The notes: generated from the sequence alone by a model not told the origin. A stretch of 64,000 bases of DNA from Gaiellaceae bacterium (GCA_035653275.1 DASRCE010000002.1:13267-77266), one strand, 5' to 3'. Shown: positions 41,161 through 44,199, counted from the stretch's first letter. Program-made: numbers and translations.

Positions 41161-44100
41161 ATGTTCACGCCGCTGCCGGACAAGCCGGATCATCCCGCGC
41201 TCGAGCTGGAGATGCTGGATGTCTGGGAGCGGGAGCGGACGTTCGAGCAGCTCCGCGAGCGGAACCGCGGCGGCCCCAAGTGGTCGTTCATCGACGGCCC
41301 GGTGACGGCGAACAGGTTCTCGCTCGGCGTCCACACGGCGTGGGGGCGGACGCTGAAGGACGTCTTCCAGCGCTACAAGGCGCTGCGCGGCTTCGACCAG
41401 CGCTACCAGAACGGCTTCGACTGCCAGGGGCTCTGGATCGAGGTGGGTGTCGAGCGGTCGCTCGGGCTGAACTCGAAGCGCGAGATCGAGGACTTCGGCC
41501 TCGAGGAGTTCGCCCGCCGCTGCCGCGACGTCGTCGTCCGCTCGTCGGAGGCGCTGACCCGCGGCTCGATCCGCCTCGGCCAGTGGATGGACTGGGGGAA
41601 CGACTACTTCACGTTCAGCGACACGAACATCGAGTACATCTGGAAGTTCCTCAGGCTCGTCCACGCGCGCGGCTGGCTCTACGTCGGCCACCGGTCGACC
41701 GAGTGGTGCCCGCGCTGCGGGACGTCGCTGTCGCAGCACGAGCTGTCGCAGGCCGGCGTCTACCAGGAGCGCGCCGACCCCTCGCTCTTCGTCCGCTTCC
41801 CGCTGCTCGACCGCGAGGGAGAGCACGTCGTCGTCTGGACGACGACGCCGTGGACGCTGCCGGCGAACGTCGCGGCGGCGGTGCATCCCGACGAGGAGTA
41901 CGGACGGCGCGAGAACGGCGAGTGGGTGGCCGTCAAGCTCTTCCCGGACGACGCCTTCGCCGAGCGGCGTCCCGGGCGCGAGCTCGTCGGCTGGCGCTAC
42001 CGCGGGCCGTTCGACGACCTGCCGCCGGCGTCGCAGGTCGAGCATCGCGTGATCCGGTGGGAGGACGTGACGATGGACCAGGGGACGGGCGTCGTGCACA
42101 TCGCGCCCGGCTGCGGCGCCGAGGACTTCGAGCTGGCGAGGCTGCACGAGCTGCCCGTCCTCACGCCCGTGGACGAGGCCGGCCGCTTCTACGACGACTA
42201 CGGCTGGCTCCACGGGCTCTCGACGACCGACGCCGCCGACCAGATCACCGGCCGCCTCGGCGAGACCGGCTTCCTCGTCTCGTCCGGTCTCTACTCGCAC
42301 CCGTACCCGCACTGCTGGCGGTGCGACACGCCGCTCATCTTCCGGCTCTCGGACGACTGGTTCATCTCGGTCGACGAGGTCCGGCCGAAGCTGCTCGAGG
42401 AGAACGCGAAGGTCCACTGGGTGCCCGAGTACATGGGCAAGCGCATGGACGACTGGCTCCGCAACATGGGCGACTGGAACATCTCCCGCCGCCGCTACTA
42501 CGGGCTGCCGCTGCCGTTCTACCCGTGCGCCTGCGGCCACCTGAACGTGATCGGGTCGAAGACGGAGCTCCGCGAGCGCGCCGTCGAGGGGATGGAGCAG
42601 CTCGAGGAGCTGCGCCGCCCGTGGATCGACCGCGTGCCGATTCGCTGCGAGCAGTGCGGCGAGCGCGTGACGCGGATCCCCGAGGTGGGCGACGTCTGGC
42701 TCGACGCCGGCATCGTCCCGTTCTCGACGCTCGGCTGGGAGAACCCCGAATGGGTCCAGCAGGGGTATGCGACCGGTGCTGCGCGCGGCCTGACGGGCGC
42801 CGACCTACCCGACCACGCGTACTGGGAGCAGTGGTTCCCCGCCGACTGGGTCTCGGAGATGCGCGAGCAGATCCGGCTCTGGTTCTACTCGCAGTTCTTC
42901 ATGTCGGTCGTGCTCGTCGGAGAGTCGCCGTACCGCCGCGTGCTCGCGTACGAGAAGATGCTCGACGAGCACGGACGCGAGATGCACGCGTCGTGGGGGA
43001 ACACCATCCCCGCGGAGGAGGCGTTCTCGCAGATGGGCGCGGACGTGATGCGGTGGCAGTACTGCTCGCAGCCTCCCGACCGCAACCTGCTCTTCGGGTA
43101 CGGCCCGGCGCACGAGATCAAGCGCCGCCTCCTCACGTTCTGGAACTCGGTGAGGTTCTTCGTCGACTACTCGAACATCGAGGGCTTCGAGCCCGCGTGG
43201 GAGCAGCTCGAGCCCGGCGTCCCGCTGCGCCCGCTCGACCGGTGGCTCGTCGAGCGCACGAGGCAGCTCGTCGCCGACGCCGAAGCGGCGTACGAGGCCA
43301 CCCTGACCGTCGACGTCGTGCGTGCGTTCGACGCGTTCGTCGACGATGTCTCGAACTGGTACATCCGGCGCTCGCGCCGCCGCTTCTACTCGTTCGACGA
43401 GGCGGCGTTCCGCACGCTCTGGTACGCGCTCGTGCAGGCGCTGCGCGCCGTGGCCCCGATCATGCCGTTCCTCTCCGACCACCTCTGGCGGAACCTCGTG
43501 CGCGACGGGCCCGCGTCCGTCCACCTCGCGCCGTGGCCCGAGGCGGCGGCGCCCGACCGCACGCTGCTCGAGGAGATCGCCGAGGTGCGCCGCGTCGTCG
43601 AGCTCGGCCGGCAGGCGCGCTCGGCCTCGCGCCTGAAGCTCCGCCAGCCGCTTCGGCGGCTCGTCGTCGCGGGCGCGTCGCCGTCGGCCGAGGCCCATGC
43701 CGCCGAGATCGGCGACGAGCTGCGCGTCAAGGAGGTGCAGTTCGCCGCAGTCGAAGCGTCCCACGTGCGCGTGAAGCCGAACCTGCCGAAGCTCGGCCCG
43801 AAGCTCGGCCCGAAGCTGCGCGAGGTGCGCGAGGCGCTCGCCGCCGGCGAGTTCACCGAGCTCGAGGACGGACGGTTCCAGGTCAACGGCGTCGTCCTCG
43901 AAGCCGACGAGGTGCTCGTCGAGCGGGTCGGCCGCGAAGGCTGGTCCGTTGCCACCGACGGCGTCCTCACGGCCGCGATCGACACGGCGCTCGACGACGA
44001 TCTGCGTCTCGAGGGCCGGCTGCTCGACCGGGTCCACGAGGTGAACGTCCTCCGCAAGGAGAGCGGCCTCGCGATCACCGACCGCATCCGCCTCTGGCTC

Positions 44101-44199
44101 CCCGACGCGGAGCTGGTCGAGCGCTACCGCGACCGGATCGCGGAAGAGACGCTCGCGACGGAGCTGCACGAAGGACCGCTCCGCGTCGAGAAGGCGTGA
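41161..44199 (+). CDS. ileS: Isoleucyl-tRNA synthetase homologue (type 2 architecture) with non-canonical HIGH and KMSKS regions
   Basis: CP1 editing motifs TTPWTLPAN and GTGVVHIAPGCGAEDF, and Zn motifs WCPRCGT and HCWRCDTPL. However, GVHT replaces the HIGH equivalent, FDCQGLW replaces WDCHGLP, and GREMHASWGN replaces GxKMSKSxGN. Confidence 0.88.
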   Translation: MFTPLPDKPDHPALELEMLDVWERERTFEQLRERNRGGPKWSFIDGPVTANRFSLGVHTAWGRTLKDVFQRYKALRGFDQRYQNGFDCQGLWIEVGVERSLGLNSKREIEDFGLEEFARRCRDVVVRSSEALTRGSIRLGQWMDWGNDYFTFSDTNIEYIWKFLRLVHARGWLYVGHRSTEWCPRCGTSLSQHELSQAGVYQERADPSLFVRFPLLDREGEHVVVWTTTPWTLPANVAAAVHPDEEYGRRENGEWVAVKLFPDDAFAERRPGRELVGWRYRGPFDDLPPASQVEHRVIRWEDVTMDQGTGVVHIAPGCGAEDFELARLHELPVLTPVDEAGRFYDDYGWLHGLSTTDAADQITGRLGETGFLVSSGLYSHPYPHCWRCDTPLIFRLSDDWFISVDEVRPKLLEENAKVHWVPEYMGKRMDDWLRNMGDWNISRRRYYGLPLPFYPCACGHLNVIGSKTELRERAVEGMEQLEELRRPWIDRVPIRCEQCGERVTRIPEVGDVWLDAGIVPFSTLGWENPEWVQQGYATGAARGLTGADLPDHAYWEQWFPADWVSEMREQIRLWFYSQFFMSVVLVGESPYRRVLAYEKMLDEHGREMHASWGNTIPAEEAFSQMGADVMRWQYCSQPPDRNLLFGYGPAHEIKRRLLTFWNSVRFFVDYSNIEGFEPAWEQLEPGVPLRPLDRWLVERTRQLVADAEAAYEATLTVDVVRAFDAFVDDVSNWYIRRSRRRFYSFDEAAFRTLWYALVQALRAVAPIMPFLSDHLWRNLVRDGPASVHLAPWPEAAAPDRTLLEEIAEVRRVVELGRQARSASRLKLRQPLRRLVVAGASPSAEAHAAEIGDELRVKEVQFAAVEASHVRVKPNLPKLGPKLGPKLREVREALAAGEFTELEDGRFQVNGVVLEADEVLVERVGREGWSVATDGVLTAAIDTALDDDLRLEGRLLDRVHEVNVLRKESGLAITDRIRLWLPDAELVERYRDRIAEETLATELHEGPLRVEKA

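Follow-up and report, generated by a model that had tools for sequence, protein, structure and literature searches.

An unusual isoleucyl-tRNA synthetase gene in Gaiellaceae

The stretch of DNA analysed here, referred to below as the window, comprises 64,000 nt of the genome assembly of a Gaiellaceae bacterium, a soil actinobacterium (GCA_035653275.1, DASRCE010000002.1:13267-77266). Our subject is the ileS gene at positions 41161-44199 of the forward strand, which encodes an isoleucyl-tRNA synthetase (IleRS) whose catalytic signature motifs depart from those of canonical enzymes. Calling and translation of the open reading frame (ORF) gave a product of 1012 amino acids, with an ATG start and a TGA stop, and the chosen ATG is backed by homologues of 1011-1012 amino acids that share the N-terminus MF.PLP. 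The gene is preceded, after a gap of 83 nt, by a divergent thioredoxin gene (trx) and followed by a convergent ispH gene (Table 1). Rfam searches of the whole window at the gathering threshold, and of the leader region 40700-41400 at E≤1, returned no match upstream of ileS, T-box leaders included.

An earlier note on this DNA, made from the sequence alone, had described the product as a type 2 IleRS (IleRS2). This assignment was confirmed by the ileS model TIGR00392, by Pfam and by end-to-end alignment with the IleRS2 of P. megaterium (PmIleRS2). The match to TIGR00392, an equivalog model, covered residues 8-842 and was a narrow pass (652.1 bits against a cutoff of 621.4). Pfam identified tRNA-synt_1 (PF00133), Anticodon_1 (PF08264) and DUF5915 (PF19302), and phmmer aligned residues 18-989 with the PmIleRS2 structures 8c8w and 8c9d (E ~1e-170). 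The best matches in the PDB were the IleRS2 structures 8c8u/8c8w, together with 1ile. The type 2 architecture is complete, consisting of the split Rossmann fold, the connective peptide 1 (CP1) editing domain, the zinc knuckles, the anticodon-binding domain and the type 2 C-terminal domain. Both editing-site motifs of CP1, the Thr-rich peptide WTTTPWTLPAN and GTGVVHIAPGCGAEDF, align to their PmIleRS2 counterparts, and the latter retains its His and the Asp nine residues further on. We assume for the Thr-rich peptide and for the GTG..H/Asp residues the editing roles that they have in the E. coli and T. thermophilus enzymes. The motif DVWLDAG is present at residues 511-517.

Table 1. Coordinates in the window of ileS, its neighbours and the features of its product
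Feature	Position	Strand	Basis
trx, thioredoxin, divergent upstream neighbour	40763..41077	-	ORF; Pfam thioredoxin in homologous loci
ileS coding sequence, type 2 IleRS, 1012 aa	41161..44199	+	ORF, TIGR00392, Pfam, PDB matches
HIGH loop and HIGH equivalent, VTANRFSLGVHT, residues 48-59	41302..41337	+	Opposite PTANG-LPHVGH/PGVHH of PmIleRS2
Arg52 codon, basic residue gained in the HIGH loop, proposed relocated transition-state residue	41314..41316	+	K/R across triad sequences
Thr59 codon, HIGH position 4, His to Thr	41335..41337	+	Column comparison
GFDCQGLW, equivalent of GWDxHGLP, residues 85-92, Asp kept	41413..41436	+	PmIleRS2 alignment
Zinc knuckle 1, WCPRCGT, residues 182-188	41704..41724	+	Opposite yCPsCqT of PmIleRS2
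CP1 editing motif TTPWTLPAN, residues 228-236	41842..41868	+	Opposite TTPWTLPSN of PmIleRS2
CP1 editing motif GTGVVHIAPGCGAEDF, residues 308-323	42082..42129	+	Opposite GTGVVHLAPAYGEDDY of PmIleRS2
Zinc knuckle 2, HCWRCDTPL, residues 384-392	42310..42336	+	String and PmIleRS2 alignment
SEMREQIRLWFYS, equivalent of EGxDQxRGWFYS, nucleotide/isoleucine pocket	42853..42891	+	PmIleRS2 alignment
KMSKS-loop equivalent GREMHASWGN, residues 605-614	42973..43002	+	PmIleRS2 alignment
Ala610 codon, site of the lost second KMSKS Lys	42988..42990	+	Column comparison
Anticodon-binding domain PF08264, residues 693-832	43237..43656	+	Pfam
Type 2 C-terminal domain PF19302 (DUF5915), residues 850-1003	43708..44169	+	Pfam
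ispH (LytB), convergent downstream neighbour	44206..45189	-	ORF; PF02401 in homologous loci

Active-site motifs compared with canonical IleRS

HIGH and KMSKS are textbook invariants of the class I synthetases, and the second Lys of KMSKS is considered essential for activation. In the residue-by-residue alignment, the window protein has GVHT opposite HVGH/GVHH of PmIleRS2, GFDCQGLW opposite GWDTHGLP, and GREMHASWGN opposite GQKMSKSKGN. A fourth deviation, absent from the earlier note, places SEMREQIRLWFYS opposite AEGIDQTRGWFYS. At the HIGH site the protein therefore reads GVHT in place of HxGH or G/AxHH, and at the KMSKS site it reads EMHAS, with no second Lys. A search of the whole 1012-aa protein for the patterns [KR][MLIFV][ST][KR][ST], K..K[ST], H.GH and [GA].HH found none of them.

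The earlier note had reported the loss of the second HIGH His and of both KMSKS lysines, and the absence of any KMSKS-like string; the structure-based alignment and the pattern search agree with it on each point. All of the motif strings that it quoted were found at the expected residues of the translated ORF. The placement of the motifs held when checked by HMMER alignment to solved IleRS2 structures. Because the motif equivalences are fixed by the PmIleRS2 alignment, the observation is correct and precisely placed.

For column comparisons, we assembled 121 sequences of the Gaiellaceae subclade to which the window protein belongs, 117 of its sister clade and 15 of an outgroup. The isoleucine-binding residues P47 (first Pro of GPxTAN), D87 (GxD), Q570 (E..xQ) and W574 (RxWF), which we take to be P46, D85, Q554 and W558 of T. 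thermophilus, are invariant across all three sets. The deviating motifs were found identically in 120/120 of the nearest protein clusters and in 79/80 of the best-matching species genomes. An artefact, whether through errors in sequencing or assembly, through pseudogene formation or through misaligned motifs, could be suspected because the earlier note had placed the motifs from the sequence alone and because some metagenomic relatives are mosaics (see below). However, HMMER alignment to the solved structures places the motifs unambiguously, and 284 distinct sequences drawn from independent assemblies, some of them long-read contigs of 1-3.3 Mb, show the same states, all as intact full-length ORFs. 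The artefact explanation is effectively refuted.

A broad IleRS2 group shares most of the deviations

An exhaustive search with HMMER was made of 1.84 billion representative proteins, and the best 150 were aligned. Among these, a large and diverse IleRS2 group typically carries GP[IV]TANN-x-M-GVHH-AWGR, NGFDCQGLW and xEMREQ[VI]RLWFYS. The KMSKS equivalent of this non-canonical group is x-[MF]-[HS]-K-[ST], in which the first Lys is gone and the second, catalytic Lys is retained. Its named members come from Gemmatimonadota, a metagenome-assembled genome (MAG) of Bacillota, Magnetococcales, a DPANN archaeon and a Heimdallarchaeote. Most of the motif deviation of the window protein is typical of this clade. 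The degeneracy described in the earlier note was thus overcalled for GFDCQGLW, for the G-x-H arrangement and for the first KMSKS Lys, which are normal in a clade that spans phyla, but it stands for Thr59 and Ala610. A swap of HIGH to G/AXHH is compatible with function, as it yields an active and catalytically efficient IleRS2 variant that confers mupirocin hyper-resistance (PMC10485003).

Several archaeal-type IleRS representatives among the best 150 pair HxGT with a normal KMSKS; Thr at HIGH position 4 therefore has natural precedent. The archaeal-type proteins P0215, P0220, P0232, P0234, P0239, P0244 and others read H-x-G-T-A-W-N-K together with KMSKS or xMHKS, so the fourth His of HIGH is naturally replaceable elsewhere in the IleRS family.

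We also observed a subgroup of the broad clade (P0144, P0146, P0157, P0162, P0168, P0204 and P0214) in which E-[SC]-F-P-G-Q-F-[KR]-N-W-F-Y replaces E-M-R-E-Q-x-R-L-W-F-Y, WLISKKRxWGLA takes the place of WNISRRRYYGLP, and NPWLDAG that of DVWLDAG. This subgroup includes a Magnetococcales MAG and proteins of up to ~1300 aa, and the pocket around its conserved Gln is further remodelled.

A triad of changes defines the Gaiellaceae subclade

The 120 nearest clusters are 81-87% identical to the window protein; those with a named source are labelled Gaiellaceae, and all read TAN[KR], [GA]xHT and REMH[AGS]SWGN. The next relatives, at 60-72% identity and several of them named Gaiellaceae, all read TAN[NAG], GVHH and EMHKS, save for P0338, an intermediate that combines GVHT with EMHKS and has the state [non-basic52, T59, K610]. 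As the two sets differ at residues 52, 59 and 610, this triad is the lineage-specific event: residue 52, immediately after TAN, changes from N/A/G to K/R, residue 59 from H to T, and residue 610 from K to A/G/S. The window protein carries the Arg form (R52, T59, A610), and a conservative I48V substitution goes along with the triad.

Column comparison showed that V48, K/R52 and T59 are fixed in the subclade, whereas the sister clade and outgroup have I48, N/A/G52 and H59. Residue 59 is T in 121/121 subclade sequences and H in 116/117 sister and 15/15 outgroup sequences; residue 610 is A/G/S in 121/121, K in 117/117, and K or R in 14/15, respectively. HIGH position 1 is G or A in the relatives, with one Leu exception, and the window protein has G56-V-H58. 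Among the near-fixed differences of the subclade, only residue 52 gains a positive charge, K99R being conservative.

To describe how these residues are combined, 474 distinct sequences of the clade were classified by their states at residues 52, 59 and 610. The state [K/R52, T59, non-K610] was found in 284 sequences and [non-basic52, H59, K/R610] in 186, so that two exclusive states cover 470/474. Residue 52 is K or R in 284/284 lysine-lacking sequences, and of 188 sequences without this basic residue 187 keep the KMSKS Lys. The remaining four comprise one [non-basic52, T59, K610], two with both basic residues and one with neither. The rare sequences with K52 and K610, or with N52 and S610, are P0499, P0553 and P0479. 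At least two of them are mosaics, since P0499 and P0553 each clearly combine two lineages. In P0499, residues 300-1000 are 95-100% identical to one lineage and the first 300 residues derive from another. Both mosaics lie on short contigs (4.6 and 7.2 kb) and could be natural recombinants or chimeras of metagenome assembly.

The identity of the basic residue is coupled to loop length and to residue 610. Where two residues link Lys52 to the HIGH equivalent, residue 610 is Gly (116 sequences), and where three residues link Arg52 to it, residue 610 is Ala or Ser (162 sequences); the lysine-lacking group contains six exceptions. The basic residue accordingly sits at -3 (K) or -4 (R) from HIGH position 1 when A/G/S occupies position 610.

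A further unreported HIGH variant was seen in the lysine-keeping, Gaiellaceae-type sister clade. P0318, P0322, P0336, P0340, P0341, P0344 and P0392 read GPITANGPAGVQH-LGR with a KMSKS equivalent of RPMHKS; Gln occupies the third position, where G/AXHH enzymes have the His that stands in functionally for the first HIGH His, and the sequence following the motif is shorter by one residue.

Charge states alternate among close relatives

Trees were built by neighbour-joining without bootstrap, and the motif columns were removed for the tree of configurations. On that tree the Lys and Arg forms interleave, and for 6/79 lysine-lacking species genomes the nearest relative, by a margin of >2% identity, has the other form. 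Sequences in the old state, with Lys at 610, are moreover nested within the lysine-lacking clade, where they read GPITANGSMGVHHAWGR and EMHKS. A search seeded with one such protein, L067, found GPITANGSMGVHH together with EMHKS in at least 27 clusters, which fall into nine identity groups.

L067 is encoded on a 1.0-Mb contig with the same synteny as the window locus. It shares 86% identity with the lysine-lacking L052 but no more than 68% with any sister-clade sequence, and at 19/23 clade-diagnostic positions it has the state of the lysine-lacking clade (as in L052 and L055); three of its four exceptions are the motif residues 48, 59 and 610. An even closer comparison is offered by P0471, an old-state protein with 92.5% identity to the lysine-lacking P0476; its identity to the closest of the other old-state groups is 85.5%. 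The 81 differences between P0471 and P0476 are scattered, with small clusters at residues 48-59 and 610-623. Some old-state clusters are nearer to lysine-lacking proteins than to one another.

The configurations therefore swap over a very short evolutionary scale, and the two charges are almost never found together and almost never both absent. The swapping of states among proteins so similar implies functional equivalence. We had considered L067 as one simple reversal, but this was dropped because old-state sequences occur at several places in the tree with an identical HIGH-loop peptide. The sharing of one HIGH-loop peptide by all old-state sequences makes recombination or allelic exchange at least as likely as repeated reversal.

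Residues 615-623 (nt 43003-43029) also differ with configuration, reading WGN-AMDAGEAF in the old state and WGN-MIEAEDAF in the Lys form, which suggests that more than residue 610 was co-adapted or co-transferred.

Orthology of the locus and constraint on the synthetic site

The earlier note had offered two interpretations, a non-aminoacylating paralogue and a lineage-specific catalytic solution. In its general form, the first holds that the product is an IleRS-like protein that lost adenylation once another IleRS had taken over charging in this subclade, and that it serves, for example, in trans-editing, in binding or regulating tRNA-Ile, or in sensing isoleucine. Several observations are in keeping with it. 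Two classical transition-state residues, the second KMSKS Lys and the fourth HIGH His, are both gone, and the editing motifs, zinc knuckles, anticodon-binding domain and C-terminal domain are intact, as expected of a protein that binds tRNA or only edits. The margin over the TIGR00392 cutoff is slim (652 versus 621 bits), and the name given to a close homologue, P0519, is simply 'class I tRNA ligase family protein'. In Sulfolobus islandicus, a second, non-charging leucyl-tRNA synthetase (LeuRS) is reportedly such a pseudo-synthetase. Pseudo-synthetases resemble the window protein in being full-length synthetase homologues with altered catalytic signatures, but they are extra copies beside a canonical enzyme, whereas the window gene is a positional orthologue with a tightly constrained active site and has no known second copy.

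The evidence for orthology comes from gene neighbourhoods. The window gene, the lysine-lacking L001 and L002 and the lysine-keeping L003-L005 all lie between a divergent trx and a convergent ispH. Genes for GCS2, a beta-lactamase, a GAF histidine kinase, a response regulator and CtaG accompany ileS in these loci, and the synteny of L067 is alike. Across 85 loci, trx was found in 77 and ispH in 75, and most of the others end at a contig edge. By this shared neighbourhood, the window gene and the lysine-keeping ileS are positional orthologues; the window gene is neither a duplicate nor an additional copy at a separate locus.

When one genome of each GTDB species was scanned, 505 relatives came to light, of which the best 80 (71-86% identity) were analysed. 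In 79/80 of these loci the lysine-lacking triad is present in an intact ORF. The genomes concerned include Gaiella sp. MAGs, long-read contigs of 0.2-1.9 Mb and a complete 3.31-Mb chromosome (OY969809.1, L046). Only one genome among the best 80, bin MFD05502.bin.1.65, gave two matches. Its two ileS-ispH loci, L011 and L045, encode proteins 83% and 74% identical to the window protein, and the second lies on a 5.4-kb contig. As ispH follows both copies, they appear to represent one locus from two strains and not paralogues, and the double copy looks like strain contamination of the bin.

Our searches for a second enzyme were negative within their scope. In the 64-kb window, tblastn with the window protein and three canonical or archaeal-type IleRS as queries found the window gene only. 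No contig bearing both a lysine-lacking and a lysine-keeping copy was detected by size comparison among the matches listed. The best-scoring canonical IleRS representatives whose names were looked up belong to Chloroflexota and Halobacteriota, and none to Gaiellales. In a preprint (bioRxiv 10.1101/2022.02.09.479832), bacteria are said to depend generally on a single ileS. The window enzyme may be the only IleRS of its cell. In the surveyed neighbourhood of the window gene, no biosynthetic or resistance gene cluster was found.

Relaxed constraint on the synthetic site, another expectation for a pseudo-synthetase, was not observed; the catalytic halves are the most conserved part of the protein, and their motif columns are invariant. 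Within the lysine-lacking clade, Kimura distances rise from 0.118 and 0.111 in the two catalytic halves to 0.134 in CP1, 0.177 in the anticodon-binding domain and 0.232 in the C-terminal domain. The domains rank alike in the sister clade, with the catalytic halves evolving slowest, and the distance to the outgroup is similar for the two clades (0.99 for the lysine-lacking and 0.94 for the sister clade). Apart from x, G-R-E-M-H-x-S-W-G-N is invariant in 121/121 subclade sequences. No variation was seen at D87, E566, Q570, R572 or W574 in any of the three sets, whereas M567 and E569 are invariant in the subclade and variable in the sister clade. At residues 60-61, 88, 92, 567, 569, 606-607 and 612 the subclade varies less than the sister clade, but its sampled sequences are also less diverse. 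Averaged across 68 loci, identity was 76.4% for IleRS, 78.7% for IspH and 77.7% for thioredoxin.

We regard a non-aminoacylating protein as unlikely. It is at odds with the locus shared with lysine-keeping orthologues, with the invariance and slow evolution of the synthetic site, and with the lack of another IleRS-like gene in the window, of a Gaiellales source among the top canonical representatives whose names were looked up and of a biosynthetic or resistance gene cluster around the gene. In addition, a dead site does not explain why the two loops trade a basic residue one for one, why Lys goes with Gly and Arg with Ala or Ser, or why the states alternate among proteins 86-92% identical. 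The paralogue interpretation is disfavoured by the common trx/ileS/ispH locus, the invariant catalytic motifs and the comparable outgroup distances, and the occupation of one of two exclusive charge states by 470/474 sequences favours a lineage-specific catalytic solution.

A proposed relocation of the catalytic charge

We consider it probable that the window gene is the lineage's own ileS, that its product still charges tRNA-Ile, and that the transition-state Lys has moved to the HIGH loop. Most probably the product is functional and its active site has been rewired; it is unlikely to be a dead copy. In class I synthetases, residues of the HIGH and KMSKS loops converge on the ATP pyrophosphate in the transition state; in adenylation, it is the second KMSKS Lys that stabilises this part of the transition state. 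The transition-state residues of tyrosyl-tRNA synthetase (TyrRS) are Thr40, His45, His48, Lys230 and Lys233, and residue 52 of the window protein lies between the equivalents of Thr40 and His45.

Precedent for such an arrangement exists in arginyl-tRNA synthetase (ArgRS), for which Sekine and colleagues (J Biol Chem 276:3723) reportedly showed in 2001, by mutagenesis, a catalytic role of a Lys in the HIGH loop. Across the ArgRS family the two Lys positions are reported to be mutually exclusive; for the window clade, exclusivity was computed here, in the 470/474 sequences described above. Yeast ArgRS (1BS2) reads NIAKPFHAGH within SSPNIAKPFHAGH, with K156 at -3 from HIGH position 1. Yeast K-P-F-HAGH and the Lys-form TANK-SL-AVHT of the present clade thus share a Lys at -3 and the absence of the KMSKS-loop Lys. 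According to Sekine et al. 2001, as cited in PMC8318970, ArgRS without KMSK depend on the HIGH-loop Lys.

We use ArgRS as a working analogy and not as a claim of family membership, on the grounds that a basic residue upstream of HIGH and the lack of a KMSKS Lys are both found here. The window enzyme belongs to another synthetase family, of class Ia and with an editing domain, and canonical IleRS, unlike ArgRS, needs no tRNA for amino acid activation. Furthermore, the alternative solutions split deep lineages in ArgRS, whereas here proteins with as much as 92% identity differ in them; the present clade also has an Arg form, whose loop is longer; and the catalytic role of the basic residue is in our case deduced from sequence.

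In IleRS2, the tip of the HIGH helix and the KMSKS loop are shifted toward one another, and the nonanoate tail of mupirocin sits in the channel between them (PMC10485003). The ArgRS precedent, the matching spacing and this proximity of the loops led us to propose that Lys52, or Arg52 on a loop longer by one residue, would supply the charge formerly provided by Lys610. As its positive charge shifted to the HIGH loop, Lys610 would have given way to Gly, Ala or Ser; Thr59 and the small side chain at 610 would leave space for residue 52, and the enzyme would stay a housekeeping IleRS. On this model, residue 52 would extend to the ATP phosphates and take the place of Lys610 in catalysis. Natural inhibitors of IleRS may have exerted the pressure behind the switching.

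A broader version of this proposal is that three interchangeable configurations (KMSKS Lys, HIGH Lys, and HIGH Arg on a longer loop) coexist in one family and have been swapped repeatedly, through recombination or reversal, with epistatic selection permitting one charge only and natural inhibitors that bind between the HIGH and KMSKS loops perhaps driving the exchange. We put this forward as a tentative possibility that we do not expect to hold in full.

It is also conceivable that the enzyme is active but that residue 52 is not the compensator. The second Lys might be dispensable, or replaced by Arg606, His609 or a monovalent cation, with residues 52, 59 and 610 co-varying for reasons of packing or inhibitor resistance. 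A monovalent cation, potassium, has been proposed for human TyrRS (KMSSS), although a literature search on this point found nothing usable. Consistent with another compensator, R606, E607 and W612 are invariant in the lysine-lacking group and variable in the sister clade, residues 615-623 also differ between P0471 and P0476, and Thr at HIGH position 4 coexists with the KMSKS Lys in P0338 and in archaeal-type IleRS with HxGT and KMSKS. However, the only charge gained among the near-fixed differences is that of residue 52, which is exclusive with K610 in 470/474 sequences and has the spacing of the ArgRS HIGH-loop Lys. R606 is already present in 99/117 lysine-keeping sister sequences and was therefore not gained at the transition. 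We judge this explanation improbable in comparison with compensation by residue 52.

It should be noted that a number of points weigh against relocation of the charge to residue 52 of a housekeeping enzyme. R606, by its invariance in the lysine-lacking group, could be the true or a partial compensator. Many IleRS2 of the major clade read TANG[KR]PGxHH yet keep KMSKS, so basic residues in the HIGH loop do not suffice as a marker. A characterised member of the GFDCQGLW/EMREQ clade was sought and none was found; the putative housekeeping status of that clade rests on its breadth and on its occurrence in a DPANN archaeon, a group with small genomes. The pairwise ratio of non-synonymous to synonymous substitution (dN/dS) is ~0.2 and lowest in the catalytic halves, but this is weak evidence, to which we give little weight because the G+C content at third codon positions of ileS, 0.96, compresses dS. 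Finally, the number of independent switches is uncertain, because recombination is evident and the trees are neighbour-joining trees without bootstrap.

Relation to known IleRS variants and significance

The nearest described relatives are the G/AXHH IleRS2 enzymes (Brkic et al. 2023, PMC10485003), which share with the window protein the type 2 architecture, Gly or Ala at HIGH position 1 and His at position 3. Despite the altered signature motif, these published enzymes are efficient and serve as housekeeping IleRS (PMC10485003). They have His at position 4 and a canonical KMSKS, whereas the window protein has Thr59 and neither KMSKS Lys. The window clade also differs from them in having Lys or Arg after TAN, GFDCQGLW for GWDxHGLP and EMREQIRLWF for EGxDQxRGWF.

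The resistance enzymes MupA, MupB and mupM are likewise of IleRS2 type, and the NCBIfam models for MupA and MupB were the next-best full-length matches of the window protein (468-492 bits). These scores are far below the 1900-bit cutoffs, however, and the window gene is a chromosomal gene at a housekeeping locus with no biosynthetic cluster. MupA and MupB retain KMSKS.

KMSKS has been described as strongly conserved in sequence (PMC11580382), and our searches of the searchable literature found no report of an IleRS without the KMSKS Lys. Such a variant is mentioned neither in PMC10485003 nor in a survey of 96,219 IleRS sequences (bioRxiv 10.64898/2026.02.03.703510, 2026), and the text supplements of PMC10485003 contain none of the motifs or taxa of the clade. 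What is new here is an IleRS2 that appears to use an ArgRS-like placement of catalytic charge and is polymorphic for it among close relatives.

If active, the window enzyme would be the first IleRS known to function without the second KMSKS Lys, and it would indicate that the HIGH-loop solution of ArgRS can evolve in an editing class Ia enzyme. Natural pairs that differ in the position of the charge, such as P0471/P0476 (92% identity), would then be well suited to the study of the transition state and of epistasis. Were the three-configuration proposal true, the family would exemplify a natural and ongoing migration of a catalytic residue within a universally conserved signature motif.

Because the mupirocin tail lies between the HIGH and KMSKS loops, the variants may represent a further step on the G/AXHH route to resistance, a possibility that bears on the prediction of resistance to IleRS inhibitors. 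There are also consequences for annotation. Motif-based checks would misjudge the ileS genes of abundant soil Gaiellaceae as inactive. Given that the curated ileS model is passed by only ~30 bits and that P0519 carries a generic name, annotation and marker-gene pipelines may treat these genes inconsistently.

Other features of the window

Five tRNA genes are present in the window, Pro-TGG (50545-50620), Gly-TCC (53785-53856), Arg-TCT (58499-58570), His-GTG (59908-59982) and Arg-TCG (60054-60125), and none of the five is for tRNA-Ile. Three further large proteins are encoded at some distance from ileS. The first is an S8 subtilase of 1225 aa, into which a PA domain is inserted and whose C-terminus carries a bacterial Ig domain (19635-23312, reverse strand), and the second a 1777-aa hybrid sensor kinase with approximately six GAF domains and PAS, HisKA, HATPase_c, two receiver and Hpt domains (27019-32352, reverse strand). 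The third, a protein of 1178 aa (60187-63723, forward strand), combines an N-terminal double zinc ribbon with an adenylate/guanylate cyclase domain, an AAA_16 ATPase domain and TPR repeats. Adjoining ispH, a 1203-aa multi-GAF/PAS histidine kinase (45438-49049, forward strand) is followed by a response regulator, and this pair is kept beside ileS across Gaiellaceae, including the lysine-keeping relatives.

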